This document shows, one piece after another, positions 4,486-36,204 of a stretch of 64,000 nucleotides of DNA. This DNA comes from Firmicutes bacterium UBA5493 (GTDB lineage: Bacteria > Bacillota > Limnochordia > Darwinibacteriales > Darwinibacteriaceae), in NCBI GenBank assembly GCA_002424045.1, contig DIPH01000015.1:70550-134549 (forward strand), in the 5' to 3' direction. The notes under the pieces were generated by a model, which ran no database searches, was not told the DNA's origin, and saw nothing but the letters and a program-made list of their open reading frames with translations. The position numbers and the translations under genes were made by a program. How positions within the stretch are numbered: the stretch's first letter is position 1; each line of letters opens with the position of its first letter.

Positions 4486-5892
4486 CTACAACTCCACATC
4501 AAAATAATCCCGAGCATTGTTAAAACAGATATCTCTGACCATGCGTCCCATCAATTCCAAATCGTTGGGGGCCTCCCCAGTCTCCACCCAAGCGCCGAGT
4601 AAGTCACAGAGGATTCTGCGGAAATATTCGTGACGGGTGTAGGAGAGGAAGCTTCGGGAGTCCGTCAGCATGCCCACAAACCGGCTAAGCAAACCGATGT
4701 TAGCTAGAGCTACCATTTGACGAATCATCCCGTCTTTTTGATCGTTGAACCACCAACCCGAACCAAGCTGCATCTTGCCAGGAATCCCTCCACCCTGGAA
4801 AGAGCCTGCAATCGTGGCTAAAAGATCATTGTCGATTGGATTAAGAGAATACAAAATGGTCTTGGGCACGTGATTCGTCTCGTCAAGTTTGGACAAAAAG
4901 GCAACGAGAGCTCGACCATAAACTCGATCATCCATGGAGTCAAACCCGGTATCAGGCCCTAAGAGTCTGTGCATACGAGCACTGTTGTTTCTGATTGCAG
5001 AAAGGTGGAGTTGCATAACCCAGCCTCGTTCAGCATATTCCCTTCCTAAGAAAAGCAAGACTTGTGTCTTAAACATCTCCGTTTCTTCCTGGGTAAGCAT
5101 TTCTCTGCGTAAGGCTTTTTGCAGGGCAGAAGTCGCGTCCTCATCGGTTCCTTCCCCGTAAACAATGGGATCCAAACCATGATCGGATAGGCGACATCCC
5201 ATGCTATGGAAGAATTCAATCCTCTGCTTCAGTGCTTCCTTGAAGTCTGCGAATGTTCGAACCTCCCCACCAACGATTGCTTCAAGCTTCGTGACCCAAT
5301 CAACGAACCCAGGTTGATCAAGGTTAAAGCTCTTATCGGGTCGGAACGCGGGATACACCTTTACCGCAAAATCATTGTCCTCAGCCAAGGCTTGGTGGTA
5401 TCTTAGAGAATGGGCGGGGTCATCAGTTGTACACAGTCCCTTGACATTGGACCTTTCGATCAATGCTCTAGCCCTGAACTCTTCTTTCTGTAACAGACGA
5501 TTACACTCTTCCCAGATCTCCTCCGCCGTTTCTGGCGAGAGAAGTGCATCGATATCGAAGTACCTTCGCAATTCCAAATGAGTCCAATGATAGAGGGGGT
5601 TACCAATACATGCTGGCATCGTCTGGGCCCACTTCATAAACTTGTCTTTATCGCTGGCCTCACCAGTTATGTATTTCTCGTCGACTCCATTGGCCCTCAT
5701 GGCACGCCACTTATAATGGTCGCCGGCCAACCAAATCTCGGTTATATTTCTATACCTCTTGTTCTCAGCGATCTCCTTGGGGTTCAAATGACAGTGATAG
5801 TCAAAAATAGGCATGTCTTTCGCGTATTCATGATAGAGTCTTTCTGCTGTTGGGTTCGTTAATAAAAAGTTCTCATCCATAAACGATTTCAT
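4486..5892 (-). CDS. uxaC: Glucuronate isomerase (uronate isomerase)
   Basis: Start trimmed to MKSFMDENFLLTN (GGAGGGAG ribosome-binding site). Conserved UxaC N-terminus FLL..P.A..LYH...K..PI.DYHCHL. Confidence 0.9.
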   Translation of the reverse strand: MKSFMDENFLLTNPTAERLYHEYAKDMPIFDYHCHLNPKEIAENKRYRNITEIWLAGDHYKWRAMRANGVDEKYITGEASDKDKFMKWAQTMPACIGNPLYHWTHLELRRYFDIDALLSPETAEEIWEECNRLLQKEEFRARALIERSNVKGLCTTDDPAHSLRYHQALAEDNDFAVKVYPAFRPDKSFNLDQPGFVDWVTKLEAIVGGEVRTFADFKEALKQRIEFFHSMGCRLSDHGLDPIVYGEGTDEDATSALQKALRREMLTQEETEMFKTQVLLFLGREYAERGWVMQLHLSAIRNNSARMHRLLGPDTGFDSMDDRVYGRALVAFLSKLDETNHVPKTILYSLNPIDNDLLATIAGSFQGGGIPGKMQLGSGWWFNDQKDGMIRQMVALANIGLLSRFVGMLTDSRSFLSYTRHEYFRRILCDLLGAWVETGEAPNDLELMGRMVRDICFNNARDYFDVEL

Positions 5893-5983
5893 GCGTTTCT
5901 CCCTCCATATTGGATTTACCTGAGTGTCTGGCTCTACCAAAAAACCCGTACTCCCCATCACAAGGAGTACGGGTTGTGTCTAT

Positions 5984-7435
5984 TTAGGCATTATAGGTAG
6001 ATGCCGCGGTGCTTCCCCCTTGACCGGTCCAGTTCGTGTGGAAAAACTCTCCACGTGGTTTGTCTATCCGTTCGTAGGTATGGGCGCCAAAGTAATCCCT
6101 CTGGGCCTGCAGTAGATTTGCTGGAAGCCGGGAGTTGCGATAGCCGTCATAATAGCTGAGGGCTGCGCTAAAGGCCGGTACTGGAATGCCATGGAGCATG
6201 GCTGTGGCACACACTTTTCTCCAGCTCTCCTGGGCCTGGGTAATCTTCTCCTTGAAGATGGGATCCAAGAGCAAATTAGCGAGTTCTGGGTTTTGATCGA
6301 AAGCTTTTTTGATATCACCCAAGAAAGCCGAGCGAATAATACATCCTCCCCGCCACATGAGTGCGATGCCGCCGTAGTTTAGATCCCAACCATGACTCTC
6401 TGCTGCTGCACGCATCAAGGCATACCCTTGCGCGTAGGAGACAATCTTGGAGGCATAGAGAGCTTGCCTGACATCTTCGATAAAGGCCTTCTTGTCGCCT
6501 GTAAAGCTCGGTTTCGGACCTTCGAGAACCTTGGAAGCCGCCACCCTTTCTTCCTTGAGGGCAGACAGAAAGCGTGAGTAAACTGCTTCCCCGATTAAGG
6601 TTAGGGGAACACCTTCATCTAGAGACGAAATGGCTGTCCATTTTCCTGTTCCCTTTTGCCCAGCCGTGTCTAGAATTTTCTCCACCAAAGGCGAACCATC
6701 TTCATCTTTATAGGCTAGAATGTCCGCGGTAATCTCGATGAGGTAACTATCCAGGTCCCCTTGATTCCAGTCGCTAAAGATCTCATGCATCTCATCAGGT
6801 GTCATCCCTAAGAGATCCTTTAAGAGATGGTAGGCTTCACAGATGAGCTGCATATCGCCGTACTCGATACCGTTATGCACCATCTTGACAAAGTGTCCGG
6901 CACCATCCTGCCCCACCCACTCAGCGCAGGGACTACCATCTTCCACCTTCGCAGCTACTGCTTGGAAGATGGGCTTAATATGGGACCAGGCTTCAGGTGA
7001 GCCGCCTGGCATGAGACTTGGTCCAAGAAGAGCGCCTTCTTCACCGCCAGATACTCCCGTTCCCACGTAGAGCAAGCCTTTTTCCTCCACATACTTCGTC
7101 CGGCGAATGGTATCGGGGAAGTGCGAATTGCCTCCATCGATGATGATATCGCCTGCTTCGAGGAGAGGAATCAGCTGCTCAATCAGATTGTCTACGGGCT
7201 TTCCTGCCTTAACCATGAGCATCACTTTACGAGGGGTCTTCAGGCTCTGCACCAGTTCTTCCAAAGAATGTGCCCCAATGATATTTTTGCCTTTCGCTCT
7301 TCCCTCTACGAAGGACGTTACTTTTTCCACTGTGCGATTATAAACTGCAACGGAAAAGCCTTTGCTTTCCATGTTCATAACCAAGTTCTCGCCCATTACT
7401 GCCAAACCGACTAAACCGATATCTGCTTTTGACAT
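5984..7435 (-). CDS. gnd: 6-phosphogluconate dehydrogenase, decarboxylating
   Basis: 483 aa with [17 protein letters not shown]-binding Rossmann motif and typical Gnd/GntZ core and C-terminal tail. Confidence 0.9.
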
Positions 7436-7459
7436 ACTTCATACACCCCTTATTTTTCG

Positions 7460-8539
7460 CTATCTCTGCACCCTCGCATTACCTTCCCAAATACTCCATA
7501 CCTGCTGTTCATCGGCAGGTTGGGCATAGTCGGTCAAGAACGTAGTAGCCATGGCACCAGTGGCCCAGGCAAATTGAACCCATTTTTCCGAATCCCAGCC
7601 CCGTAAAATGCCATACAGCAGACCGCCTACAAAACCATCGCCCCCGCCAATGCGGTCCAATACAGTAATGGGACGGGGCTCAACCACATGCCACTTGTCC
7701 TCAGCTAACAAGATGGCTCCCCACAAATGGGAGTTTACGCTGACAACTTCACGCAGGGTATTGGCAAAAACAGAGGTGTTGGGAAACTGTTCTTTGACTC
7801 TTCCAATCATGTCCTTAAAGCCATGGATCTGTTCATTAATGTCTTGGCCGCCAGCTTCAGGGCCTTTGATGCCCAGACAGAGTTGATAGTCTTCTTCGTT
7901 GCCGATCAAAACATCGCTTAAGCTTGCGATTTCGGTAAAGATGTCCCGTAGTTCCTCTTCCCTATTCTCCCAGAATGTTGCCCGATAGTTTAAGTCAAAG
8001 GAAACTAGCGTTCCGTGCTTCTTAGCAGAGCGGGCCAACTCCAGACAAAAGGTACTGGTTTCAGGGGATAATGCGGCAATTAGACCCGAAAGGTGCATAA
8101 TCTGTACACCTTCTTCGCCAAAAATCCGCTCCATGTCAAAGTCCGCTACATTCAGTGTGCGACCTACTTCTCCTGCCCTATCATTTTGCACTCTAGGACC
8201 GCGTGTACCGTATCCGCTGTCTGCAATGTTGAATTGATGGCGATAACCCCATGGTCCGCCCTGAGGTACTTCAGGACCCTCATAGGTCATGTGCCTGCTG
8301 GCTAAGTTGTTCTTGATAAACTGGGCAATGGGACTGCCCTTTACAAAGGCAGTTAGCACCTTAACCGGTAAACCAAGATACGAAGAAATGCTGGCTACGT
8401 TCGTTTCTGCGCTGGTGACCTGCATTTGAAACATATCACTAGAATGCACAGGCTGTCCGTTCATTGGCGTAATGCGCACTCCCATGCTCGTGGGAACCAG
8501 CAAAGAATAAGTAAAATCCTTTCGCAATTGTAGACTCAT
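7460..8539 (-). CDS. PfkB-family sugar kinase, 2-dehydro-3-deoxygluconokinase (KdgK)-like
   Basis: 359 aa. KdgK-like N-terminus (LLVPTSMGVRITP), AETNVA motif, PfkB signature DRIGGGDGFVGG. True substrate (KDG versus gluconate-like) is unknown. Confidence 0.7.
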   Translation of the reverse strand: MSLQLRKDFTYSLLVPTSMGVRITPMNGQPVHSSDMFQMQVTSAETNVASISSYLGLPVKVLTAFVKGSPIAQFIKNNLASRHMTYEGPEVPQGGPWGYRHQFNIADSGYGTRGPRVQNDRAGEVGRTLNVADFDMERIFGEEGVQIMHLSGLIAALSPETSTFCLELARSAKKHGTLVSFDLNYRATFWENREEELRDIFTEIASLSDVLIGNEEDYQLCLGIKGPEAGGQDINEQIHGFKDMIGRVKEQFPNTSVFANTLREVVSVNSHLWGAILLAEDKWHVVEPRPITVLDRIGGGDGFVGGLLYGILRGWDSEKWVQFAWATGAMATTFLTDYAQPADEQQVWSIWEGNARVQR

Positions 8540-8557
8540 TGGAATGTCCTCCTGTTC

Positions 8558-10096
8558 TTATTGTTTTATGCCAAGGGCTTTCAAATGGCGATTCATATGG
8601 CAGACGAGAAACTGCTCATACCGGCCCTCATGTTTTTTTAACACTTCGTAGATACCCTCTTTGAGCTTGGGATCTTGCAGCATGAACCCATAGGTGATGT
8701 GCAAGAGTTGGCGAGCATCATCTTGGTCAAGGAGTCCAGGTAGTTCCTGATCCTCGAGAGTATCAATTTCAGGGACTTTCGCGAGATCCATGCTCACGTG
8801 GTAATACTTGCGAGCGGCTTTAAGAGAGTCCAGAGCTTTTTGATGGAGTGCCCTATAAAGACAAGGATCTACATGTGCGATCACCCTCACGGCCTCCAGC
8901 CAATTGGTTCCGGCAGTTTTTACATGATACCCTGTAGCCCTTGCGTATTTACCGATAATGGGGAAGACGCTGAATTTATCGCTTCCAGAATGGATACTGA
9001 GTTTATATCCGAAGTGACTGGAAATGTCCGCGTGAACTGCAAACTCTTGCTCAAATTGTTCTAGATCGCCCATATAGTCAATGCCTTTCTCGAAGTGACC
9101 GTAAAAGCGCGGAGCAACGCTACAGACCTTGATACCCCTTTTTTTCAGCTCATTAGCGACAAAGAAGTGATCCTGGGGGGTTGTGGGTGTAGCCACTTCA
9201 TCGATACTGATCTCAAAGTCTATGGGCCGATCGAGTTTTGTAATTACTTGTTCATAGACCTTTTCCATGAAGTCCAGAGCTTGATGGTAGGTTAATGCCA
9301 TCCGTTGGTAATGCTCTGGATCCATATAAATGGTTGCACCATTTTGGAGCTCATAGCGTTGATCACAATAGAGTTCTTCAAATTCTTTTCGTTTTGCCTT
9401 TGGAAGCTGGTTATACTGGCTTAGAACCTCAGCCTCTGTTAGGTCTAGGATTTCATCATTGATGTGTTCCGAACAATCCAAAGTAATCATGCTGAATCCT
9501 AGCTCCAAAGCCATTAGAATATCTTCTATCTTTTTAAGATGGTCACCGTCTGCGCCATATCCTCCTTGATACCCTTCTTGGAAGACAGCCCAAGTAGCCG
9601 CATCAAGGACGTCTACATAGGTGCGGTTTGTTAGTTCCAATTCTCGCATAGATTGCTGGGCCAAAACCGGGCGCACTGGAGTGTCACGAATGGCCTTAAG
9701 ATGTCCGGGACTTGCAAGACCTAGACGATCTCCGAGCCCCATGGAAATCCCACTGGTGCCTAAAGCCTGAGGTGCAGTCCAAGTCAAAAGGGAACGTAAA
9801 ACCTTTGCATTCTTGCCATTTAAGGCAACCTGTTTCACCATAAAAACACCTACGTTAGAAACCTCGCCTTCGAATTGGTCAGTCCCCTCCCGATCTGAGA
9901 CAACGACCACTCGCCTTTCTCGAGCTTCCTTAACCATGAACAGAAGCTTATCATAGGCGAGTTGTAATGAGTCGGGGAAGACATCGCCCGATTCTTCTTC
10001 TAAGCGTTGTTTCAAGTCTTCAAGAGTCTCGGCTTGTTTCACCGTTTCGCGCCAACTTGTCACAACCATTCCTCCTCGTAGTGGTCTAAACTTCAC
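8558..10096 (-). CDS. Putative tagaturonate/fructuronate epimerase (UxaE-family-like) protein
   Basis: 512 aa with His/Asp/Glu-rich segments (SIHSGSDKFS). Operon context with uxaC/kdgK matches the Thermotoga-type uxaE arrangement. Assignment is by resemblance and context only. Confidence 0.4.
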   Translation of the reverse strand: MKFRPLRGGMVVTSWRETVKQAETLEDLKQRLEEESGDVFPDSLQLAYDKLLFMVKEARERRVVVVSDREGTDQFEGEVSNVGVFMVKQVALNGKNAKVLRSLLTWTAPQALGTSGISMGLGDRLGLASPGHLKAIRDTPVRPVLAQQSMRELELTNRTYVDVLDAATWAVFQEGYQGGYGADGDHLKKIEDILMALELGFSMITLDCSEHINDEILDLTEAEVLSQYNQLPKAKRKEFEELYCDQRYELQNGATIYMDPEHYQRMALTYHQALDFMEKVYEQVITKLDRPIDFEISIDEVATPTTPQDHFFVANELKKRGIKVCSVAPRFYGHFEKGIDYMGDLEQFEQEFAVHADISSHFGYKLSIHSGSDKFSVFPIIGKYARATGYHVKTAGTNWLEAVRVIAHVDPCLYRALHQKALDSLKAARKYYHVSMDLAKVPEIDTLEDQELPGLLDQDDARQLLHITYGFMLQDPKLKEGIYEVLKKHEGRYEQFLVCHMNRHLKALGIKQ

Positions 10097-10109
10097 CGGG
10101 CCTTCCCAG

Positions 10110-10865
10110 CTAGAGAATTAACGAAGCCGAGTCTCGATCAAGATACAAAGTGACATCCGCGTGAGTTCGAAGGATCGATGCAGGGCACTTCGTGCTGATG
10201 GGCCCTTTCAGGGCATCATGCACAGCCTGGGCTTTTCGCCCATCAGGAACAACCGAAATAATCTTCTTACATCTCAAGATGGCTGGGACAGTGAGGGTCA
10301 GTGCCTCTTCAGGAACGTCCTCTAAAGCTTTGAACCAGCCCTCTCCCAATTGTTGCCGTCTGCAAGCATCATCTAACTGCACCACTTTTACCAGAAACTC
10401 ATCTTCAAAATCGGCCACCGGGGGATCGTTGAACGCAATATGACCATTTTCACCGATTCCGATAAAACCGAGCTTAATAGGGTTGGCTTCAATAAGTTGA
10501 GCATAACGCTCACATTCCCCTTCTACGTCTGCGGCGTCACCTTGGATGTACTCTACTTTATTGGGGCGGAACACCTTCTCGATGCGTTCTCTAATCCATA
10601 GCCTGAAACTTGCAGGATGCTCCGGGGACATCCCCTTATATTCGTCTAGATGGAAAGCTATAACCCTGCTCCAATCAATAGTCTGTGTCTTAAGACCATC
10701 CATAAAGGTAAACTGTGATGCCCCCGTCGAAAACAACAGATTTACCATGGGTTCCTGCACACTCTGCAAGTATGAGCTGGTGTCCTCTGCTGCAGCACGC
10801 CCCAACTCCTGCGCATTTTCGTACACTTTGACCTTAATGTTATTGAACTGCATTTCCCTAATCAT
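10110..10865 (-). CDS. Glucosamine-6-phosphate deaminase / 6-phosphogluconolactonase family protein (NagB-like)
   Basis: 251 aa with LFSTGAS, IGIGENGHIAFNDP motifs of the NagB/Pgl family. Ribosome-binding site AAGGAGG 9 nt upstream. Confidence 0.75.
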   Translation of the reverse strand: MIREMQFNNIKVKVYENAQELGRAAAEDTSSYLQSVQEPMVNLLFSTGASQFTFMDGLKTQTIDWSRVIAFHLDEYKGMSPEHPASFRLWIRERIEKVFRPNKVEYIQGDAADVEGECERYAQLIEANPIKLGFIGIGENGHIAFNDPPVADFEDEFLVKVVQLDDACRRQQLGEGWFKALEDVPEEALTLTVPAILRCKKIISVVPDGRKAQAVHDALKGPISTKCPASILRTHADVTLYLDRDSASLIL

Positions 10866-10869
10866 TGAG

Positions 10870-12153
10870 CTAAGCCTCCTTGTTACCTTTGGGGAAGTCC
10901 TTTTCCAAAGCCCAAAGACCTAGAGCTGGATTACTAATGTAAAAGACTTCTTCTCCGTTAACGATATTACGGCCTTCCTTGAGCTGGTCTAGCCTATACT
11001 GGCTGACAGCTTGGGCATAGGGCACGTAGTTGTAATTGACTCCTCGAATCTCCTCTTCCGTCAAATGCTCCACCGCATAGGTGATTTTGAAGCGGTTTTC
11101 CGAGGAACCATGAATTAAATGTGCTGCCACCGACAGATTCTTCCCCAGTTCCTCACTGGTTTTCACAAAGTCTAGAATCTCACGACTGGTCTTATAACCG
11201 AAAGCGCGAATCAAACGATCAATCTCTGGATCTTCGCCAAACATACGAACACCAGGAGCCAAAATGACCAACTCACCATCATCTGCAATGGCCATTCTTG
11301 TGCGATACACGGACTTATTGCCCAGCCAGGTGCTCCTAAATTCGTTGGGATCCAAGTAGACGACAACTTTCTTGAGAGGTTCAGAGAGCAAGTCCAAATT
11401 GCATACTTGACTCTTAGCTACAGCCTGGCTAAACGCCTCGCGCTCCTTGCCCAAGAATAAGCCCTGCAGTGCAGTGGCTTCGTCCCTTGTTTCAGTTACG
11501 GTAAGAACATAAGCCAAGGGCAAATCATGCAGGAAATGCTCTTCTGCATAATCAAACACCTTACGAACGGGGGAATAATCCCGACCCATCATTTTCTCCA
11601 TGCCGTAAACTGCTCCGAGAAAATGGGACTTGTCAATAATATCTTTACCACCGCACCCTACCACGATGTTCTTGGTGTAATTGGCCATCCCCACTACCTC
11701 ATGTGGTACGACTTGACCGATGGACAAGATGAGATCATACTGGCCTTCGAGAATTTCACTGTTGATATCCACAACAATGGAATAATCCACGAGGCCTTCA
11801 GAGACTTCCTTTACAAAACCGCCTGGCACAACGCCCACCGTTTTAACATCGGTGCGCCAGTTATGGTCTAGGTACACCTCAGGCGGTACATCTGCCCCAA
11901 AAATCCGCTGTTTTTCCTCCAAGGTCATGGGTACATGGGTTCCCAAGGCCGGCAAAATTCTTACCTCTGCAGGCTGCAACAAGTGGTGCAACATACTCGT
12001 GATTGGTCCGGCCATGCTATGTGCCCTGGTGCCGTCTGGAGGGATTAGCAACACTTTATCTAGGGGCTTTTCGTATGCACCCAGCCATGTGGCCAACTCC
12101 TTTTGGACGGTCTCTAAATCGATGGGACCGTCTGCCAAGAAACGACTTTCCAT
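10870..12153 (-). CDS. LarA-family (nickel-pincer-nucleotide-dependent) alpha-hydroxyacid racemase/epimerase homolog
   Basis: 427 aa with LLIPPDGTRAHS (D-x-TR motif), ALGTHVPMTLEEK (LarA ALGTHRPMT motif), VVPHE..G and conserved Lys region. Consistent with DUF2088/LarA N- and C-domains. Confidence 0.65.
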   Translation of the reverse strand: MESRFLADGPIDLETVQKELATWLGAYEKPLDKVLLIPPDGTRAHSMAGPITSMLHHLLQPAEVRILPALGTHVPMTLEEKQRIFGADVPPEVYLDHNWRTDVKTVGVVPGGFVKEVSEGLVDYSIVVDINSEILEGQYDLILSIGQVVPHEVVGMANYTKNIVVGCGGKDIIDKSHFLGAVYGMEKMMGRDYSPVRKVFDYAEEHFLHDLPLAYVLTVTETRDEATALQGLFLGKEREAFSQAVAKSQVCNLDLLSEPLKKVVVYLDPNEFRSTWLGNKSVYRTRMAIADDGELVILAPGVRMFGEDPEIDRLIRAFGYKTSREILDFVKTSEELGKNLSVAAHLIHGSSENRFKITYAVEHLTEEEIRGVNYNYVPYAQAVSQYRLDQLKEGRNIVNGEEVFYISNPALGLWALEKDFPKGNKEA

Positions 12154-12174
12154 ACCTTACACCACCCTCTATTT

Positions 12175-12987
12175 CTATACTCCCGAAAACGCTGCAAATC
12201 CGCCATCCACAGGTACAACGATTCCGGTGACAAATCGGCTTGCATCCGATACGAGCCAAATAGCGGTACCCACTAGGTCAGAAGGTTCTCCAAAGCGGCC
12301 CATGGGTGTGTGCTCTAAGATTGTACGGCCCCGAGCTGTTAAATCACCTGTTTTCTCCTCGGTTAGCAAGAAGCGATTCTGCTTGGTCAAGAAGAAGCCT
12401 GGTGCCATTGCATTCACCCTTATATTTGCGGAATAGTGTTTGTTTAGATGGACCGCCAGCCACTGGGTGAAATTGCTTACTGCTGCTTTAGCACCGCCAT
12501 AACCTACAACATTGGTCAATGGCCGTATGGCTGCCATGGAGGAGATATTCAGAATCACTCCCTCTTTTTTCTCTGCGAGGATTTCGCCGAAAACTTGCGA
12601 AGGAAGCAAGGTGCCCATGAAGTTGAGTCGCACAACGTTATCCAGATCCTGTTCGGGTAAATCAAAAAAGGACAAATTCGGGCTTGTGGTTGCGGATGGG
12701 CTATTGCCCCCGACCCCATTCACCAGAATATCGATGGTACCATACTTGGCTAGAATCTCTTCCCGAGCTTGCAGGAGACTTTCCCGATCTAAAGCATCGA
12801 ATGGAATACTGACGGCGTCCCCCCTCGCTTCCTTAATTTCCGCAACCAGTTCATCCGCGGGGTTACGATCCAATACCGCAATTTTGGCCCCGGCTTTGGC
12901 TAGGCCGCGGGATAGTTCACTCCCCAAAATACCTGCTCCACCCGTAATTGCCACAACTTTACCACTCAAATCAAATAATCCTTGCAT
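12175..12987 (-). CDS. SDR-family D-mannonate/fructuronate oxidoreductase (UxuB/YjmF-like)
   Basis: 270 aa with TGGAGILG Rossmann motif and YGGAKAA catalytic Y-x3-K. Resembles the Bacillus SDR-type UxuB. Confidence 0.7.
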   Translation of the reverse strand: MQGLFDLSGKVVAITGGAGILGSELSRGLAKAGAKIAVLDRNPADELVAEIKEARGDAVSIPFDALDRESLLQAREEILAKYGTIDILVNGVGGNSPSATTSPNLSFFDLPEQDLDNVVRLNFMGTLLPSQVFGEILAEKKEGVILNISSMAAIRPLTNVVGYGGAKAAVSNFTQWLAVHLNKHYSANIRVNAMAPGFFLTKQNRFLLTEEKTGDLTARGRTILEHTPMGRFGEPSDLVGTAIWLVSDASRFVTGIVVPVDGGFAAFSGV

Positions 12988-13113: not shown

Positions 13114-14349
13114 CTATACATGATCCCACCCATTGGATTTCGGTAGCTCAAAAATATCCTGCAATAGTAAGGTTGCCGCTCCAATTGTCACGGAGTCTTG
13201 CCCCAAACCCACTGGTTCTAACCTTAGGTGACTTTTTAGGGGCTGGAGCACCTGGATACCTACGGTTTCCCGAACCTTGGGTAATATATAATCCAGCACC
13301 GGAAACACATCTCCTCCGATTAAAACCTTCGCAGGATTGAGAATGTTTATGGTGTAGGACAGTGCCAAACCCAAGTGAGCGGCAACCTCTTCCCATAATC
13401 TAAGGGCTGCTGGGTCACGGGCAAACGTGGCCTGGCACAGCTTCTCGAAATTGAGCTGGTTGGGATCTCCTCCGGTAAATGCCATAAGGCTCTGGGCTTC
13501 ACCCTTCTTTAGCAGTTCCCTTCCGCGCTTCAATATCGCATCAATGGATGCAACCGTCTCTAAACAACCTAAATTACCACATTTGCAGCGGGGACCACCT
13601 GGAAGGACAGTAAGATGTCCGATTTCACCTGCACTATAATCCGTCCCAGGAAATAACCTACCGCCCAAGATCACACCTGATCCGATAGAAGAGCCAACTT
13701 TTACTACGAGGATATTTTCCACCGCTTGCCCATTACCAAACCACGATTCTCCAAGTGCCATGGCGTTGGCATTATTCTCCATGCGGACGGGTAAGTCATA
13801 CCTACTTTCAATGTTGACGGCCACCGGTTCATTACGCCACTCAATGGCCGGAGCGAAAACACTAAGACCTTGATGACTATTAACAATTCCATGCATAGCC
13901 ACGCCTATGCCCAAAACAGTAATTTCTCTCTCTTGGGCTCGCTCTAGCAACGAATCTATGACACCATAGACATCCGCCATCACAGCATCCCGGCTGGCAT
14001 CTCGGAGTGGTACTTCCATACGTTCTGTGATCTGGGCGTTAAAGTCGACCAAGACTCCTGCCACAAATGTTGATTCAATGGCGATTCCCACTACATGAAC
14101 GGCGCCGGCAACCAGACTTAACATCACGGGTCTACGACCAAGCCCACTGTCTCCTTCGCCACTCTCCTCCACGAATCCTTCTTCCAAAAGTGAAGCAACG
14201 ATACGAGTGATTGTGGACCGATGGAGTCCTGTCTGGCGCGCAATATCAGCCCGCGAGATTGATCCAGCCCGCATAATGTGACCTAGGACCAATCTGGGAC
14301 TAATCTCTTTTAAAATGGGGAGCTTCTCTCGAATATCCATAGCCATCAT
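13114..14349 (-). CDS. ROK-family transcriptional regulator (NagC/XylR-like) with N-terminal HTH
   Basis: 411 aa with N-terminal winged HTH and ROK sugar-kinase-like domain including the CxCGxxGC zinc motif (KCGNLGCLE). Confidence 0.85.
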   Translation of the reverse strand: MMAMDIREKLPILKEISPRLVLGHIMRAGSISRADIARQTGLHRSTITRIVASLLEEGFVEESGEGDSGLGRRPVMLSLVAGAVHVVGIAIESTFVAGVLVDFNAQITERMEVPLRDASRDAVMADVYGVIDSLLERAQEREITVLGIGVAMHGIVNSHQGLSVFAPAIEWRNEPVAVNIESRYDLPVRMENNANAMALGESWFGNGQAVENILVVKVGSSIGSGVILGGRLFPGTDYSAGEIGHLTVLPGGPRCKCGNLGCLETVASIDAILKRGRELLKKGEAQSLMAFTGGDPNQLNFEKLCQATFARDPAALRLWEEVAAHLGLALSYTINILNPAKVLIGGDVFPVLDYILPKVRETVGIQVLQPLKSHLRLEPVGLGQDSVTIGAATLLLQDIFELPKSNGWDHV

Positions 14350-14366
14350 TCCTGTTCCACAGGAGT

Positions 14367-15647
14367 CTACTTGATCATATGGTTGATAACAGTAACATCC
14401 GTCTTCTTCATGCCTTCAGAGGCAATGTTCCCGATTACACTGATGGTCTCCTCCACATTGGACTTGACAATACCGTCCCCATCCAAAAACTTCAGAGCGG
14501 TAAAGGACATGGTCAGCCCCATAATGGCTGCATCTACTGACGATGCAATTTTTGCTGCACACGACGGTTTGGCTCCATCACAAAGAATGCCCGAAACATT
14601 AGCTAATGTGTTTGTGATGGTATCGCAAACCTCTTCATAATCTCCTCCGAGCATGTAGGTGATGGCAGCACCTGAACCGCAGGCTGCACTTACCGCGCCA
14701 CAATAGGCCGAAAGGCGACCAATACCGGTTTTCTGATGAATGGCCACGAGGTTACTTACACACAGAGCCCTAAACAACTTTTCCTCAGACAATTCATAGT
14801 ATCTGGCATAGACGATAACGGGGATAGAGGCAGCAATGCCCTGGTTTCCGCTTCCAGAGTTGATCACAACAGGCAATTGGCAACCGTCCATGCGGGCATC
14901 GGAAGCGGCAGCAGCTGTAGCACGGGCAACATTCCCGACGGCATTTCCGAAGTTCTCCAGGAGGACCTTGCCCACACTAGCGCCGTAGTCCTCTGTTAAG
15001 CCTGCTTCTGCAATGGCGGTATTATGCTCAACCTGGGGCCTGAGAATGGGCTCAACATCCTCGAGTTTCACAGAATGAGCAAAGTCCAGAATATCTCTGA
15101 CATTCAAGAGCGAACGATCGGTAAGTGTTTCACCACCCTCGGCACTTACTCCTTTATCCAAGAGGATGTTGCCGTCCTTTTCGATCCGCACAAAGCTCGT
15201 GTGGGTATGCAAAATCTCAACTAAGGCGTGGCTTTGCTTCGACGTCCCCTCCACAATAAGATGGAGTTTAGCTGGAGTTTTATCCAAGAGTTCCACCACG
15301 CAGCACGAAGCATCAGCGATGCGCTCCTTCGTGTTTTCAATGTCTTTTTCCTTAACAGAACTTAGGACCGCCAAACCACGATCTGCTTCTCCACCGAAAA
15401 TGCCCAGCCATACCGCGGTCGCAATTCCTTTTAGACCGTTAGAGTGGGGAATGGTCACCGACTTGGTGTTTTTGATCAAGTTTCCACTCATCCTGACCTC
15501 AATTTTCTCAGGAACCTCACCTAGAACGTCCCGAAGCTTAGCACCGGCTAAAGCCAAACAAGCAGGCTCGGTGCAACCTACAGCAGGTACCAATTCTTCC
15601 TCCAAGATAGCAATATAATTCTCGTATTTCACCTTATCAATACACAT
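14367..15647 (-). CDS. UPF0597/YhaM(CyuA)-family serine-dehydratase-like Fe-S protein (L-cysteine desulfidase homolog)
   Basis: 426 aa with AVGCTEPACLALAGA, INSGSGNQGIAASIPVIV, LCDGAKPSCAAKIAS. These align closely with E. coli YhaM motifs. Confidence 0.7.
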   Translation of the reverse strand: MCIDKVKYENYIAILEEELVPAVGCTEPACLALAGAKLRDVLGEVPEKIEVRMSGNLIKNTKSVTIPHSNGLKGIATAVWLGIFGGEADRGLAVLSSVKEKDIENTKERIADASCCVVELLDKTPAKLHLIVEGTSKQSHALVEILHTHTSFVRIEKDGNILLDKGVSAEGGETLTDRSLLNVRDILDFAHSVKLEDVEPILRPQVEHNTAIAEAGLTEDYGASVGKVLLENFGNAVGNVARATAAAASDARMDGCQLPVVINSGSGNQGIAASIPVIVYARYYELSEEKLFRALCVSNLVAIHQKTGIGRLSAYCGAVSAACGSGAAITYMLGGDYEEVCDTITNTLANVSGILCDGAKPSCAAKIASSVDAAIMGLTMSFTALKFLDGDGIVKSNVEETISVIGNIASEGMKKTDVTVINHMIK

Positions 15648-15670
15648 ATGTCACCTCATCATAACCGAAA

Positions 15671-16528
15671 TTAACCTTTAACCGCACCGGCCACTTGACC
15701 GGATTTCTGATATGTCTGCATGACTAGGTAGAGAATAATACTGGGGACAATGACCAAGGTAGTGCCCGCCAGTACCACTTGCCATGGCGTCGATAATCCG
15801 TCGCTGACTGGGAGCATTGAAACCGAAACCATCAGCGTATACTTAGAACTATCGCGCAAATACAGAAGGGGCCAGAAGTAGTCGTTCCAACGGGCAATAA
15901 CCGTGATAGATGCCCAGGAGGCCAATGCTGGTTTGGCAATGGGCACAACAATTCTTCTATAGATGCCAAATTCACTGCATCCGTCAATACGAGCCGAATC
16001 AATGATGGCGTCGGGTATATCCAACATATATTGCCTCAAATAGAAAATACCAATGGCAGTGGCCATCCGCGGAATGATCAAGGACCATAGACTGTTAACC
16101 AAGCCTACTCTGCGCATGATCACAAACATGGGAACCGCACCAACTTCTGGCGAAATCATCATGGTAGCAATGACAAAATAGAAGAGAGCATTGCGCCCGG
16201 GAAAATCGAATTTAGCAAAGGCATATCCTGCCAGGGAACAGAAAAACAACGTGGTCACCGTCCCCACGATGGAGGTAAATGCACTGTTTAAGAGATTTGT
16301 CCAGATTGGAATGAGTTCAAAAAGCCGCTTGTAGTTGGCCAGTGTTGGACTTTGAATACGCAGGGCATTAAACCCAGTAATACTCTCTCCCACTTCTTTA
16401 AAGGAAATAATGGACATCCAGAGTACTGGGAAGAGACAAAAGGCAACAATAATGCACAGCAATCCATGGACAACAAGTTTACGAAGCACTTCCTTTGTCT
16501 TGTAGCTCATAACAAACCCCCCCGTCAC
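15671..16528 (-). CDS. Carbohydrate ABC transporter permease (CUT1 family, MalG-like)
   Basis: 285 aa with EAA-like loop (IDGCSEFGIYRRIVVPIAKPAL). GTG start overlaps the upstream stop (TAGTG); an alternative ATG lies 18 nt downstream. Confidence 0.85.
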   Translation of the reverse strand: MTGGFVMSYKTKEVLRKLVVHGLLCIIVAFCLFPVLWMSIISFKEVGESITGFNALRIQSPTLANYKRLFELIPIWTNLLNSAFTSIVGTVTTLFFCSLAGYAFAKFDFPGRNALFYFVIATMMISPEVGAVPMFVIMRRVGLVNSLWSLIIPRMATAIGIFYLRQYMLDIPDAIIDSARIDGCSEFGIYRRIVVPIAKPALASWASITVIARWNDYFWPLLYLRDSSKYTLMVSVSMLPVSDGLSTPWQVVLAGTTLVIVPSIILYLVMQTYQKSGQVAGAVKG

Positions 16529-17397
16529 TAGATTTCACCCGTCCTGCGTCGTACCATGAACTGAATGAGCGAAATACCAAGCAGAATTACAATCAACACT
16601 ACACCTAACGCAGAACCGTAACCCAATTTGAAGTTGGTGAAAGCGGACGTATACATCAGTTCAAACAACGATGTATTTGATGTTCCAGGCCCAGATAATA
16701 TGTGGGACTCATTGAAAAGTCGCCACGCGTCTACGGTGATGGTGATAAAGCAGAAGAACAGAATATTATTTAGCAGTGGCAGGGTGATACGGAGAAACTG
16801 TTGCCAGCCCGATGCTCCATCCACTGTAGCTGCTTCGTAATACTCATCGGAGATATTCAATAGACCAGATAGGATAATCATTGTGAACCAAGGCGTTAGG
16901 CGCCAGATAAACAAGATCACTACTGGAATCCAGGCATAGGCACTTGTGGTCAACCAGGGAATACGACTTCCTCCCAAGGACACAATGACCTCATTCACCA
17001 GGCCTGCATGTTCTTCAAACAACATTCGGAAAATTAACCCCATGGCCACCGAAGCACAGACATACGGAAGAAATGTGGACGTTTTGAAGAACTGTTTCGA
17101 GCGTAACACTTTGCTATTGAGCAAAACAGCGATGAGTAAAGACAATCCCATGATGCCAATGGCTCCCACGATCCAGTAGCGAAATGTATTCTGGATAGCA
17201 TTGGAAAACATGTAGTCATTCATCATGAGCTGGTAATTTCTCCACCCAATCCACCTCGGAGGCCTTAGCCCGTTCCATTCAGTAAAGCTGTAATACACAG
17301 TGGCAATGGTGGGAACAAGCTGAAATACCAGGAAGAGAATGAGATAAGGTGCGATGAATAGATAGGGATGGCGATGCTTTCTCAACGTCTCCCACAT
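16528..17397 (-). CDS. Carbohydrate ABC transporter permease (CUT1 family, MalF/UgpA-like)
   Basis: 289 aa polytopic protein with ABC permease signature. Confidence 0.85.
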   Translation of the reverse strand: MWETLRKHRHPYLFIAPYLILFLVFQLVPTIATVYYSFTEWNGLRPPRWIGWRNYQLMMNDYMFSNAIQNTFRYWIVGAIGIMGLSLLIAVLLNSKVLRSKQFFKTSTFLPYVCASVAMGLIFRMLFEEHAGLVNEVIVSLGGSRIPWLTTSAYAWIPVVILFIWRLTPWFTMIILSGLLNISDEYYEAATVDGASGWQQFLRITLPLLNNILFFCFITITVDAWRLFNESHILSGPGTSNTSLFELMYTSAFTNFKLGYGSALGVVLIVILLGISLIQFMVRRRTGEI

Positions 17398-18974: not shown

Positions 18975-19619
18975 TTAGCGCAAGGAATCAATGTCAACTT
19001 CCAATACTCGTTTGGCATAGGCTAAATCTCTGTTTTTGCATGCTTCAACGAACTCAAAATGGCGCGCACCTGAGGAGCGCTCCTTCATGAGAGGATTGTC
19101 GCGGTCATAGCCACTAAAGTGTTGGGTCGTAGCCCGAGTCAACTTACGTAATATCTGTTCCAAAAGCCCATAGAGAACCTGATTTTGGGCGTAAGAAGCC
19201 AGCTGCAGGTGGAAAGTCATGTTGCGTTTCCAGTTGTCCATGGGTGCCCCATGAATTTCAGCATCTTTGCGATTGGCATGGTTCAATCTTTCCAACTCGG
19301 CGATGACTTCATCGGTCAGCATGTGGAAGCTTCTTTCCAACATATAGATTTCTAAGGCCTGGCGTGCTTCGGCTAATTCCCTTATTTGCTTGGGAGTGAT
19401 CTGCACTACCATATAGCCCAGCCGCGGTATAGAACGCAAAATATCCTCATTACAAAGTTCAATGAGCGCTTCCCGAACCGGCGATTTGCTTACCCCGAAC
19501 TCGTGAACTAACCTGCTCTCCGTAATAATATCCTCCGAGCTGTATTTTCCGTTAATCACGTCGCTATACACTTGATCATAGACTTTTCTTGTTAATGGTT
19601 TTGAGTTTTGTAGTGCCAT
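18975..19619 (-). CDS. GntR-family transcriptional regulator (FadR/FCD C-terminal domain)
   Basis: 214 aa. N-terminal GntR winged HTH (LVHEFGVSKSPVREAL) plus FCD-like C-terminus. Confidence 0.85.
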   Translation of the reverse strand: MALQNSKPLTRKVYDQVYSDVINGKYSSEDIITESRLVHEFGVSKSPVREALIELCNEDILRSIPRLGYMVVQITPKQIRELAEARQALEIYMLERSFHMLTDEVIAELERLNHANRKDAEIHGAPMDNWKRNMTFHLQLASYAQNQVLYGLLEQILRKLTRATTQHFSGYDRDNPLMKERSSGARHFEFVEACKNRDLAYAKRVLEVDIDSLR

Positions 19620-19662: not shown

Positions 19663-20622
19663 TTAGAGATCACCCGCAGCATCCATCACTGCCCGGAGAT
19701 GCGAGACTTCAATGTTTTCCGGCAGAGTGCAATCGGCACCGATAATGAACCTCTCCCGGCCGACCTCAGCAACGATCTCAGCTGCCGTGCGGGCAATTTC
19801 CTCTGTGGGGCCATCAACGAGCACACCACTACGGTCGTCAAAGCCGCCCAAGAGCGTTTTTCCAGGAAACAATCTTCTTCCATCGGCTAATGTATAGTCA
19901 CTTTCGTGGATCGCCCAGTTGATCACGTCAGCGTTGATCGGAGAGTACATGGGTATGTTAGTACCGCCTTTACAGATATGCAGGATACTGATTGCACCTT
20001 GCTCATTGATATGATCAACCACTGCAGCATCTAAAGGCCTGACATACTTCTCAAACAAGCTTTGTTCGAAACGATGCGCTTCGCCACCTAGAGCGGCATA
20101 AAAAATCCCGTCAGCACCAGCTTCGACCAACTTGGTGCTGAGCTCACACAGCGTTTTTACCACGCTTTTTAACGCCGTGGCCACTGTCTCAGGGTCCTCC
20201 CTAAGATGCCTGCTCACTAAGTTATCTGGGTTTGCAAAATAGCCTGGTTCTTCCGTTGCATGATAAGCTGAAACAAGAACTCCATGTACCGTAGCGAACA
20301 ACGGTAGGTCCTGTGGCAACTCAGCACGAAGCATTCGAAACTCTGTGAGGTATTCTTCATATCCAGTGCGTTCCCATGGCAACGCCTTTAGATCCTTCCA
20401 ATCGGATATGTTAGAAATTGGTTTTTCCATGCGATAAAAATGCTCGTTCATGACTTTGAGTATATCTGGTTTAACCTTCTGGTAATAATCCAAATGGGCC
20501 TCTACTGCGGCACGGCCCGTCCAGTTATCGGAACTAAAATGATGCCAAAAGCCACACAGAACTCCGTCTATGCTTTCTCCACGAAGTGTCGCGTGCAGGC
20601 GTTCCCGTCGATCCACAATCAT
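19663..20622 (-). CDS. Uroporphyrinogen decarboxylase (URO-D)-like family protein of unknown function
   Basis: 319 aa with URO-D/MtaA-like TIM-barrel features. First gene of the operon with the GntR regulator and sugar ABC transporter; no haem-biosynthesis neighbours. Confidence 0.6.
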   Translation of the reverse strand: MIVDRRERLHATLRGESIDGVLCGFWHHFSSDNWTGRAAVEAHLDYYQKVKPDILKVMNEHFYRMEKPISNISDWKDLKALPWERTGYEEYLTEFRMLRAELPQDLPLFATVHGVLVSAYHATEEPGYFANPDNLVSRHLREDPETVATALKSVVKTLCELSTKLVEAGADGIFYAALGGEAHRFEQSLFEKYVRPLDAAVVDHINEQGAISILHICKGGTNIPMYSPINADVINWAIHESDYTLADGRRLFPGKTLLGGFDDRSGVLVDGPTEEIARTAAEIVAEVGRERFIIGADCTLPENIEVSHLRAVMDAAGDL

Positions 20623-20840
20623 TCTCCTTTTATAGCAAACGTTGCGTTTATTTAATATTATCAGTAGTAATATTACCCTAGTATTTAATAGAAGTCAACC
20701 CCATAAATGTACTTGTTATTGGACGAATTTTGGCATTTTAAACCGTTTTCGCGAAAATAAAGCTCGGAAGATATTATCACTAATCATATCAGCCTGGGTC
20801 CGATCACCCTAAACATTGCCTTACCTTCACCCGATCGTAA

Positions 20841-21947
20841 CTAGAGGTAGTGTGACGGAGGACGGCAACAAAGGAGTCTAAGAGGAGTCTGCTCCGCTTC
20901 TGTGGAGAGAGTGAACTCGCCTAAGATAGCTGGCCAAAACATGACATCCCCCTGATTGATGGTCCATCTTCGACCGCCTACCTCCATACTGCCTCGACCC
21001 TGTACGGCAATGGCAATGGTATAGGTTTCCATCTCTAGTTCTGTGCGCCCCCGCACCACAAATTCTGTTAGCCCAAAGTAGGGTTGATCAGGGTCTCCCA
21101 TCATGGTCTCGTAAACGCTAACCTGGGCCCCTTCGGACACTATCGGCACGAGTCTTCTTTTCGCCAAATTTCCCTCAGGAGAATCTCCCTGGTACTGGAA
21201 TAAGTCTAGGGCTCGTTCCCAGCCTAACCCTAAGTGGTTGGAGGAATGCTCGAGGGGGGCATCTTGACCATTCGCTTCAGCGTAGATTGTGAGATCCGAG
21301 GGCTCTTGGATCTCTAACATGAGTACGCCGGAACCAATAGCATGGGGGACACCCGCGTCCACCATGAAAATGTCCCCTGGTCTGACGTCAACTCGGTGCA
21401 TCATGGCAATGAGAGACTCTGTATCCCGATTCAGGAGTGCCTCTTTAAAGTCCAGAGCACGAACCCCCTCACGAAAACCCAAGAGAATATAAGGCGGAAC
21501 ACCATTGATGCTTCTGGTTTCAAGAATGTACCAGGCTTCAGCTTTGCCATGACGGCTACCGAATAAGGACAGGGCTTGTTGGCGCGATGGATGCACCTGA
21601 ACCCTCAGTCGTTCACAGGAGTCCAGTAATTTGGCCAAAAGGAAGGGATGCGCACCGAACACTTCCACATGTTTTTCCCCGAGCATCTCCCGTGGATATT
21701 GCTTGATTACATCATCTAACATGAGCTCACGATCACCAACGGACACAAGGCTCAAACCTTCGTTGGGATGCGTTTTCAGACGAGAAGCTGTTGTCGATCC
21801 GAGCCAATCCTCTGGTGCACAGCTATCTCGGGGATTAGGGTACCTTCGAAAGGCCTCCAAGAGTAGTCCTCCACGATAGGTACGAAGAACCCGGTTGGGC
21901 TTTAACACGAATGCTTGTTTCAATTGGTCTTGGGTCAAATGGAGCAA
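20841..21947 (-). CDS. manA: Mannose-6-phosphate isomerase, class I
   Basis: 368 aa. Type-I PMI zinc-binding motifs VQVHPS...AEAWYIL...HAIGSG. TTG start with AAAGGAG ribosome-binding site. Confidence 0.8.
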   Translation of the reverse strand: MLHLTQDQLKQAFVLKPNRVLRTYRGGLLLEAFRRYPNPRDSCAPEDWLGSTTASRLKTHPNEGLSLVSVGDRELMLDDVIKQYPREMLGEKHVEVFGAHPFLLAKLLDSCERLRVQVHPSRQQALSLFGSRHGKAEAWYILETRSINGVPPYILLGFREGVRALDFKEALLNRDTESLIAMMHRVDVRPGDIFMVDAGVPHAIGSGVLMLEIQEPSDLTIYAEANGQDAPLEHSSNHLGLGWERALDLFQYQGDSPEGNLAKRRLVPIVSEGAQVSVYETMMGDPDQPYFGLTEFVVRGRTELEMETYTIAIAVQGRGSMEVGGRRWTINQGDVMFWPAILGEFTLSTEAEQTPLRLLCCRPPSHYL

Positions 21948-36107: not shown

Positions 36108-36204
36108 GTAAACTCCCCTTCGCATTTTTTTGACGTTCTCTTTACGTATTACTATTAGATTCCTCCGCCCGATTCCCCTTCACAAGTTAGCAAAGATTTC
36201 CGTC

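Follow-up and report, generated by a model that had tools for sequence, protein, structure and literature searches.

Why should a gene of a cysteine-degrading enzyme family lie in an operon for the import of sugars? The question arises on contig DIPH01000015.1 of Firmicutes bacterium UBA5493, an uncultured member of the Bacillota known from a metagenome-assembled genome, from which we analyzed a stretch of 64,000 nucleotides (positions 70,550 to 134,549, forward strand; called the window here, with all positions counted from its first letter). An open reading frame (ORF) on the minus strand (14367-15647; ATG start, 426 amino acids) encodes a protein related to CyuA (YhaM, UPF0597 family), which we call the CyuA-like protein. 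Within its transcription unit, the gene comes last but one, preceded by genes for a URO-D-like protein, a GntR/FCD regulator, a solute-binding protein (SBP), and two permeases and followed by a gene for a ROK regulator. An earlier sequence-only reading of the window had recognized this family and setting and had proposed that the enzyme is an Fe-S ammonia-lyase that converts glucosaminate to 2-keto-3-deoxygluconate (KDG) for a neighboring kinase pathway.

The CyuA-like protein looks like an ordinary member of its family

In every sequence-level comparison that we made, the protein is an ordinary-looking CyuA-family member. Pfam model SDH_alpha (PF03313) matches residues 90-421 with an E value of 1.1e-61, and Escherichia coli CyuA (YhaM, b4470) aligns end to end with 35% identity over 425 amino acids (E, 1e-64), as the earlier family assignment would have it. 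The sole solved relatives found in a PDB search were entries 9fsl and 9he0 of Methanococcus maripaludis CyuA (MmCyuA; E, 6e-25 to ~1e-24), with an alignment spanning residues 12-410 of the query, and the motifs GCTEP, DARMxG, SGSGNQG, SAxCG, and CDGAxxSCAxK are all kept. The Fe-S serine dehydratase alpha model TIGR00718 scored 20 bits against a cutoff of 243, and tblastn with E. coli TdcG gave no match within the window. At NCBI, a 426-amino-acid protein (HBN95204.1) that shares a 90%-identity cluster with the query is named "hypothetical protein."

The functional residues known from MmCyuA could be traced one by one. Its conserved cluster ligands are Cys287, Cys329, and Cys336; Cys23 and Glu25 of the GCTE motif are catalytic, their mutants being inactive, and the serine dehydratases SdaA/B lack both; Arg223 and Asn239, together with Lys339, make up an anion (carboxylate) site (PMC12647591). 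The counterparts in the query are C316, C356, and C363 for the cluster (kept in 56 of the 57 aligned relatives, the lone exception being a gap), C25 and E27 for the catalytic pair (57/57), and R252, N268, and K366 for the anion site (conserved in 56 to 57 of 57). A fourth, nonconserved ligand of MmCyuA, Cys289, is replaced by alanine in the query, and the C289A variant of MmCyuA is fully active (PMC12647591). Retention of the CyuA-specific pair C25/E27 speaks against the ammonia-lyase activity on glucosaminate that had been proposed.

In a neighbor-joining tree rooted on E. coli CyuA, CyuA-like proteins linked to the cassette described below were intermixed with unlinked ones. Taken together, the interleaved tree and the unchanged functional residues imply that the cassette-linked CyuA is apparently no special enzyme, and on these two grounds we rejected a cassette-specific CyuA subfamily. 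The reaction is most likely an α,β-elimination on L-cysteine or a very close β-substituted alanine, yielding pyruvate, ammonium, and sulfide.

The gene recurs beside a transport cassette found in two phyla

The SBP of the operon belongs to a tight orthologue family, and each SBP-orthologue context that we examined held the same gene set. Treponema sp. HNW (locus L018), for example, has the same six families in the order URO-D-like, SBP, permease, permease, GntR/FCD, CyuA-like; identity to the proteins of the window is 56% for the CyuA-like protein, 57% for the SBP, and 63% for the permeases. Sphaerochaeta-like contigs (L022 and L023) carry the cassette with two URO-D paralogues, human-gut and other contigs (L024 to L026) have the six cassette genes between housekeeping genes, and L028 and L029 repeat the gene order of the window, ROK gene included. 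A metagenome scan with the SBP alignment added 80 further loci. ORFs of the loci were called mechanically, and the metagenome contigs, which carry no taxonomy and are partly redundant, were de-replicated at 90% SBP identity; lineages were counted as independent when their SBPs were <90% identical, and flanks were counted as full when each was 3.5 kb or longer.

Among the 21 independent lineages with full flanks, the URO-D-like gene was present in 21, the GntR/FCD gene in 16, and the CyuA-like gene in 11. In nearly all loci, the gene directly 5' of the SBP gene is the URO-D-like one. The CyuA-like gene occupies at least eight different positions or orientations relative to the cassette, usually co-directional with it and separated by short gaps. 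Given 11 of 21 lineages, at least eight arrangements, and a frequency of the CyuA family that we take, as an estimate of our own and not a computed value, to be about once per genome, the association lies far above chance.

The cassette, which appears to be self-contained, spans the Bacillota and the Spirochaetota and occurs in human-gut Clostridia, Treponema, Sphaerochaeta-like organisms, and digester Bacillota. Its core consists of an oligosaccharide-type CUT1 importer and one to three URO-D/MtaA-like proteins; a GntR/FCD regulator is usual, and about half of the independent lineages also have a CyuA-like gene. This recurrence of the same set across phyla and in many gene orders upholds the earlier view that the carbohydrate-type context is meaningful. 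Likewise, the gene does lie inside a CUT1/SBP/ROK/URO-D-like unit (23 bp after the permease genes and 17 bp before the ROK gene), and neither cysteine or sulfur genes nor a CyuP homologue was found in the 64-kb window. A search of the literature found no description of the cassette in searchable papers.

The ROK gene and the ManA-like cupin gene are lineage-specific accessories. The ROK gene is located 3' of the CyuA-like gene in two loci, L009 and L030, and in L031 it comes immediately 3' of permease 2; a ROK gene whose product is only 28% identical to that of the window follows the CyuA-like gene in L028, L029, and L032. Copies of the ManA-like cupin gene (54 to 69% identical) were found at the same site only in L029 to L032.

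A corrinoid-less URO-D/MtaA-like protein is the constant enzyme

The deeply divergent URO-D-like protein is the only enzyme encoded in every cassette. Its AlphaFold 2 model is a TIM barrel (predicted local distance difference test score [pLDDT], 91), for which the top Foldseek matches were MtaA (4ay7/4ay8) and HemE (template modeling score [TM], 0.79; 15% identity), followed by MetE. A single-sequence search of the PDB returned nothing useful; the family profile returned only MtaA 4ay7 (E, 8e-4), with the invariant LH(I/M)CK aligned on LHICG of MtaA. All 37 homologues compared have His215, Cys217, and Cys298, and many His, Trp, Tyr, Glu, and Asp positions are likewise invariant. The top NCBIfam matches were the MtaA/CmuA models, at 39 to 44 bits against cutoffs of 235 to 244.

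In MtaA and MtbA, the thiol substrate is bound by zinc at His-x-Cys...Cys, and the corresponding site of the URO-D-like protein is presumed to bind zinc. The URO-D fold and the His-x-Cys...Cys of MtaA/MtbA-type enzymes are thus both found at the sequence and fold level, but no cassette contains a corrinoid (B12-binding) protein or a reductive activase, which sets the cassette apart from known MtaA-type systems and from "mlp" clusters.

The family is large (at least 700 protein clusters) and falls, among the cassettes, into subtypes "a" and "b," which are ~33% identical. Subtype "b" alone is found in the window and "a" alone in Treponema and the gut contigs; many cassettes have both (mixed or multicopy loci are L022, L023, L028, L029, L032, L035, L036, L041, and L047), and a third, divergent copy is present in L034, L038, and L044. 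A URO-D-like gene (43% identical) is paired with a GntR/FCD gene in the aerobic alphaproteobacterium Aureimonas fodinaquatilis (L027; VTWH01000002.1, 9200-11715), with divergent 2-hydroxyacid dehydrogenases, a YjgF/RidA-family protein, an Opp-type ATP-binding cassette (ABC) system, and KduI as neighbors; that locus holds no CUT1 system, no CyuA, and no clear replacement for CyuA.

Accessory genes and the SufS-like neighbors

With an SBP_bac_1 binding protein and two MalF/MalG-type permeases, the importer has the components of a CUT1 system. Its ATPase gene is not within the transcription unit, and CUT1 systems commonly have none in their own unit. The AlphaFold 2 model of the SBP (pLDDT, 91) has the oligosaccharide-binding SBPs 6q5g and 6h0h as its nearest folds (20% identity), and the fold search as a whole returned only such generic oligosaccharide SBPs, ~20% identical, without a clue to the ligand.

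We searched for further partners by clustering 1,000 ORFs of 86 loci and by a Pfam census of 122 neighbors from 50 nonredundant loci. No conserved seventh cassette gene emerged, as no family occurred in more than 5 of the 50 nonredundant loci. The census counted three M24 PepQ-like dipeptidases, five GNAT acetyltransferases, four MsiK-like ATPases, and two GlpK proteins, and the clustering placed an M24 dipeptidase in 11 of the 86 loci. Outside the census, clustering or individual scans found an aldo/keto reductase (AKR) in three loci, as well as an iron-containing alcohol dehydrogenase (Fe-ADH), a GlpA-like protein, a ROK protein, and a cupin.

In L087, the core has glpK (808 bits with the GlpK model) on one side and, on the other, genes for a GlpA-like DAO+BFD dehydrogenase and its Pyr_redox_2 partner. 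GlpK-family genes that cluster with the L087 copy also lie near URO-D-like genes in L088 and in L073 to L083. Such neighbors suggest that glycerol may be one product, and the wider lead toward C3 polyols (GlpK, GlpA-like, Fe-ADH, AKR, and the dihydroxyacetone kinase Dak) is suggestive but sparse.

Two CyuA-less cassettes have a SufS/CsdA-like class V pyridoxal phosphate (PLP) enzyme directly beside the URO-D-like gene (L101, 5392-6804; L102, 4655-6151). The two enzymes are 27% identical to each other and may represent nonorthologous replacements of CyuA. Their place beside the URO-D-like gene in CyuA-less cassettes is the clearest hint that the shared metabolite is cysteine.

A possible route through a cysteine conjugate

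The reading that we favor, with somewhat more doubt than confidence, is that the importer takes up a glycoside-like conjugate, that the URO-D-like enzyme frees L-cysteine or a close analogue from it, and that CyuA degrades the cysteine moiety. The conjugate brought in by the CUT1 transporter would be carboxylate bearing, which is probable because the regulator is of the FCD type. The URO-D-like enzyme, acting without a corrinoid partner, would then release the L-cysteine or cysteine-like moiety, whose sulfur would be bound at the presumed zinc site, and the CyuA-like enzyme or its SufS-like substitute would dispose of or harvest the amino acid part as an optional last step. What is left would be a common sugar or polyol and would pass into central metabolism, in keeping with the ROK, ManA-like, GlpK, AKR, and Fe-ADH genes that occur now and then. 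Cysteine is proposed as the link because SufS-like genes occur in CyuA-less cassettes, because Liv-type importers and PF14196 genes lie beside CyuA-like genes of the same clade (see below), and because the URO-D-like protein has an HxC...C motif of the thiol-binding type known from MtaA. What we show is the family, the kept residues, the layout of the operon, and the conservation and modularity of the cassette; the substrate, the sequence of reactions, and the binding of zinc are inferred.

Several observations count against this proposal. About half of the cassettes have no CyuA within ~10 kb, a definition of "CyuA-less" that says nothing about the rest of the genome, so that either the cassette can do without CyuA or its gene lies at another site. 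No single substrate is indicated by the accessory genes (M24 dipeptidase, AKR, GlpK, Fe-ADH, GNAT, ROK, and cupin), and no cysteine conjugate abundant enough for so widespread a cassette has been established. The third residue of the His/Cys/Cys site falls outside the hidden Markov model alignment, the site being placed by alignment to MtaA; the nearest characterized enzymes are only ~30 to 35% identical to this CyuA clade; and the statistics are limited by contig redundancy and simple ORF calling.

A more specific version, which we hold to be rather doubtful, is that the cassette serves to break down or salvage a sulfur-containing glycoconjugate by a route not yet described, in which a corrinoid-independent MtaA/MetE-like zinc enzyme of the TIM-barrel type would liberate cysteine by a new kind of bond cleavage and a CyuA- or SufS-like enzyme would finish the task. 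Candidate substrates are S-glycosyl- or S-glyceryl-L-cysteine, a sugar-cysteine thiazolidine adduct, and a bacillithiol- or mycothiol-like Cys-glycoside. If true, this would be a new activity for the URO-D superfamily and would identify a new source of sulfur and carbon used by anaerobes of the gut and of digesters. Under anoxic conditions, part of the microbial H2S made from cysteine comes from CyuA enzymes, and what feeds them bears on the sulfur chemistry of the gut and of digesters. The substrate of the URO-D-like protein would give a function to its whole family and could reveal a new supply of cysteine or sulfide from glycoconjugates.

Alternative explanations

A first alternative is that the genes are independent neighbors, with a general cysteine desulfidase under GntR/FCD control that tends to adjoin an unrelated URO-D-like/CUT1 sugar module and to have a regulator in common with it, and with no metabolic hand-over between the two. 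GntR/FCD genes paired with CyuA-like genes without a transporter (L003, L010 to L012, and L020) lend it some weight. Nine genome loci from digester metagenome-assembled genomes (L001 to L009) encode CyuA-like proteins that are 71 to 86% identical to that of the window and have no adjacent transporter/URO-D block. In L001 to L005, an AKR gene (PF00248; ~305 amino acids) lies ~30 bp upstream of the CyuA-like gene, giving the order GntR-AKR-CyuA in L003; AKR genes also follow the permease genes in cassettes L034, L038, and L044, their products being 50 to 52% identical to the AKRs of the stand-alone CyuA loci, and none was found in the entire 64-kb window. Other CyuA-like genes of L001 to L009 are followed by a liv transporter or by portions of the hexuronate block described below. 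Liv-type amino acid ABC importers adjoin CyuA-like genes of the same clade in L005, L008, L019, and L021.

In two of these loci, L019 (Oscillospiraceae) and L021 (Anaerocolumna), CyuA-like genes (products ~55% identical) are accompanied by Liv-type importers, the dihydroxyacetone kinase subunits Dak1 and Dak2, and sigma-54 activators, with two ATC_hydrolase-family (PF14196) genes near the CyuA-like gene in L021. This looks like a second recurrent, uncharacterized CyuA context.

Close relatives of the window show that the CyuA and cassette modules vary independently. Both are present in L030, a near relative. The cassette is kept in L031, in which the permease and ROK DNA is 75 to 80% identical to that of the window and ~175 bp of unrelated spacer (L031:7470-7645) stands where the window has the 1.28-kb CyuA gene (14349-15671). 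Conversely, L009 (9119-10001) keeps CyuA-ROK and has no transporter or URO-D-like gene, the gap being partly a masked run of N. A hot spot for insertions and deletions appears to lie between the ROK gene and the divergent PfkB1 gene. Separate gain and loss of the two modules among close relatives, CyuA-less cassettes in 10 of the 21 lineages and in L031, and the lack of a cassette-specific clade among CyuA-like proteins would all suit independent neighbors. Against this stand the presence of the CyuA-like gene near the cassette in 11 of 21 lineages from two phyla and in at least eight arrangements, which by our own estimate far exceeds chance; its mostly co-directional placement, with gaps of 23 and 17 bp in the window; and the SufS-like genes that fill the same place in two CyuA-less cassettes. 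On balance, we consider mere neighborhood unlikely.

A second alternative reverses the order of the steps: the CyuA-like enzyme would itself cleave an imported S- or O-substituted cysteine or serine (for example, glycosyl- or glyceryl-cysteine) to pyruvate, ammonium, and a thiol or alcohol, on which the URO-D-like enzyme would then act. It agrees with the model of CyuA catalysis in which the unique iron of the Fe-S cluster binds the β-substituent (PMC12647591), with the HxC...C of MtaA-type enzymes, which is a thiol-binding site in the known relatives, and with the recurrence of GlpK, GlpA-like, Fe-ADH, AKR, and Dak genes near cassettes or CyuA-like genes. However, the universal enzyme is the URO-D-like protein and not CyuA, so that the first committed step should belong to the URO-D-like protein; close orthologues occur in settings with amino acid importers only; and the active-site residues are the same as in the E. 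coli and M. maripaludis enzymes. We judge direct cleavage to be improbable.

The third alternative, which we find harder still to credit, casts the CyuA- or SufS-like enzyme as a supplier of sulfide or persulfide that the MtaA-like enzyme uses, for example, to demethylate O-methylated sugars to methanethiol. CyuA and SufS-like enzymes both mobilize cysteine sulfur, a dispensable CyuA would suit sulfide-rich habitats, and the nearest relatives of the URO-D-like protein are methyl-thiol transferases, from which it nevertheless differs widely (only 15% identity to MtaA). We know of no chemical precedent for the cleavage of an ether by a zinc thiolate alone. MmCyuA is reported to transfer sulfur to other enzymes in vitro (PMC12647591), which would favor a supplier role, but no cassette has a corrinoid protein or reductive activase, unlike known MtaA-type systems and mlp clusters (PMC10418091).

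The adjacent hexuronate module and the glucosaminate proposal

The genes that follow the ROK gene do not belong to the cassette. They form a block (Table 1) separated from the ROK gene by a 126-bp gap with a terminator-like hairpin in between. From its gene content, it appears to encode a self-consistent, KDG-free path from hexuronate via fructuronate, mannonate, and gluconate/6-phosphogluconate to ribulose 5-phosphate. A hexuronate route from mannonate to 6-phosphogluconate has been proposed for Thermotoga, and a variant form has been shown in Lactobacillus suebicus (PMC6978723). The LarAH18 model, described as a "nickel-dependent putative hexonate epimerase," scored 608 bits, above its cutoff; gluconate 2-epimerases of the LarA family have been described (PMC11770544), and GntE is reported as a further one (PMC7583248). 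In the related loci L001, L007, L009, L015, and L031, the place between LarAH18 and Gnd is always taken by this kinase, an unusual hexonate kinase of the PfkB and not the FGGY type. The NagB-like gene is an insertion confined to the window genome, LarAH18 being followed directly by UxaE in L009 and L031, and its product could serve the hexonate route as a lactonase or isomerase instead of deaminating an amino sugar. The LarAH18-kinase-Gnd module is conserved on its own, separately from the URO-D/CUT1 cassette.

The description of this block as a KDG kinase pathway was inaccurate. The kinase of the window shares 33% identity with E. coli KdgK across 73 amino acids only; homologues of Eda, Edd, and UxuA (that is, including 2-keto-3-deoxy-6-phosphogluconate [KDPG] aldolase and mannonate dehydratase) were found neither in the 64-kb window nor in ~95 related loci (L015 to L109), and those loci had no KdgK homologue. 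Nor are the NagB-like gene and manA, which had been enlisted as partners in an amino sugar module, conserved with the cassette. Conversion of glucosaminate to KDG is unsupported because the downstream route needs no KDG and its module is not conserved with the cassette; with no conserved link to KdgK, Eda, or UxuA and a downstream module that explains itself, we rejected it.

Although a sugar acid substrate would be consistent with the carbohydrate-type transporter and with regulators of the ROK and FCD types, an AKR beside CyuA-like proteins could in principle oxidize an amino sugar, and the chemistry is formally analogous, an Fe-S ammonia-lyase for glucosaminate or mannosaminate is very hard to defend when the kinase belongs to an independently conserved module, the URO-D-like protein as the sole constant enzyme gets no role, the CyuA-specific Cys/Glu pair is retained, the 71 to 86% identical orthologues have no sugar transporter and the cassette-linked proteins form no separate clade, and the known glucosaminate lyases are reported to be PLP enzymes (PMC9529869). 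The analysis thereby removes an attractive but unsupported annotation.

Gene order and signals in the window

The transcription unit likely ends at the hairpin after the ROK gene, the sole hit of a promoter and terminator scan whose position is notable (Table 1). Such signals are weak evidence because the regional totals of these sites did not exceed the shuffled expectation. The remainder of the window consists of housekeeping genes, including a liv transporter and genes for aromatic amino acid synthesis, peptidases, and sporulation. A Beta_elim_lyase gene (34725-36125, minus strand; E, 2e-84), for a PLP enzyme of the tryptophanase/tyrosine phenol-lyase type, lies ~19 kb away and is unrelated to the cassette, although its product is a further enzyme of the α,β-eliminating kind in the window.

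Table 1. Features of the window and, in the last row, the flanks of the cassette core in L087
Feature	Position	Strand	Evidence or remarks
ManA-like cupin (class I mannose-6-phosphate isomerase-like)	20841..21947	(-)	TIGR00218, 84 bits, below cutoff of 116
Sigma-70-like promoter match upstream of URO-D-like gene	20670..20698	(-)	9/12 matches
URO-D/MtaA-like TIM-barrel protein, subtype "b"	19663..20622	(-)	PF01208, E 6e-21
GntR-family regulator with FCD effector domain	18975..19619	(-)	PF00392 + PF07729
CUT1 SBP, N-terminal signal/lipoprotein-like helix	17511..18839	(-)	PF01547/PF13416
CUT1 ABC permease 1 (MalF/UgpA-like)	16528..17397	(-)	PF00528; conserved across cassette loci
CUT1 ABC permease 2 (MalG/UgpE-like)	15671..16528	(-)	PF00528; orthologues 59-92% identical across cassette loci
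CyuA/UPF0597-family [4Fe-4S] L-cysteine-desulfidase-type lyase	14367..15647	(-)	PF03313, MmCyuA, and E. coli CyuA matches
ROK-family regulator, N-terminal winged helix-turn-helix (HTH) (NagC/Mlc-like)	13114..14349	(-)	PF00480 + HTH domains; NagC/Mlc models below cutoff
Terminator-like hairpin and T-run directly after ROK stop codon	13092..13108	(-)	Pattern match
Hexuronate module: UxaC, Gnd, PfkB kinase, UxaE, NagB-like, LarAH18, SDR mannonate oxidoreductase (UxuB-like)	4486-12987	(-)	
NagB/6-phosphogluconolactonase-superfamily gene, between LarAH18 and UxaE	10110-10865	(-)	Below all NagB cutoffs
L087 glpK and GlpA-like flanks	L087:2204-3733 and 8065-10982		

Comparison with known systems

Of the adjacent genes, UxaC, Gnd, the kinase, UxaE, LarAH18, and the SDR protein are accounted for by a route of the Thermotoga/L. 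suebicus type, from which the window differs in having a PfkB-type kinase instead of an FGGY GntK and in the inserted NagB-like gene. The resemblance to the D-glucosaminate(-6-phosphate) ammonia-lyases of Salmonella (Dga) lies in the formal α,β-elimination of an α-amino, β-hydroxy acid, as in the glucosaminate proposal; those enzymes are reported to be PLP dependent and tied to a phosphotransferase system and KDPG aldolase (PMC9529869), whereas the cassette has no linked PLP lyase or aldolase.

The URO-D-like protein shares with the methylcobamide:coenzyme M methyltransferases MtaA and MtbA the URO-D fold (TM, 0.79) and an aligned His-x-Cys, and the cassette as a whole recalls the bacterial type 1 mlp clusters, likewise a widespread, uncharacterized MtaA-like system of anaerobes. 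The mlp clusters are a corrinoid-containing system (Kountz and Balskus, PMC10418091). In contrast to both, the URO-D-like protein is only ~15% identical, there is no corrinoid protein or RACE activase, and the cassette always comes with a CUT1 importer.

MmCyuA (9fsl/9he0) shares the cluster cysteines, the Cys/Glu pair, and the Arg/Asn/Lys site with the CyuA-like protein and differs in having Cys289 in place of alanine; its proposed role is in sulfur supply or assimilation, without a transporter cassette (PMC12647591). In E. coli, CyuA is an inducible anaerobic L-cysteine desulfidase that works with the cysteine importer CyuP (PMC9040844). The likeness extends over the full-length family and its motifs and to the placement of the enzyme gene beside an importer, but the window has a CUT1 importer instead of a CyuP-type permease, GntR/FCD and ROK regulators instead of CyuR, and, as an obligatory addition, the URO-D-like enzyme. 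The protein itself is a new member of a known family, and the new element is the conserved link of CyuA with a corrinoid-less MtaA-like enzyme and a CUT1 importer.

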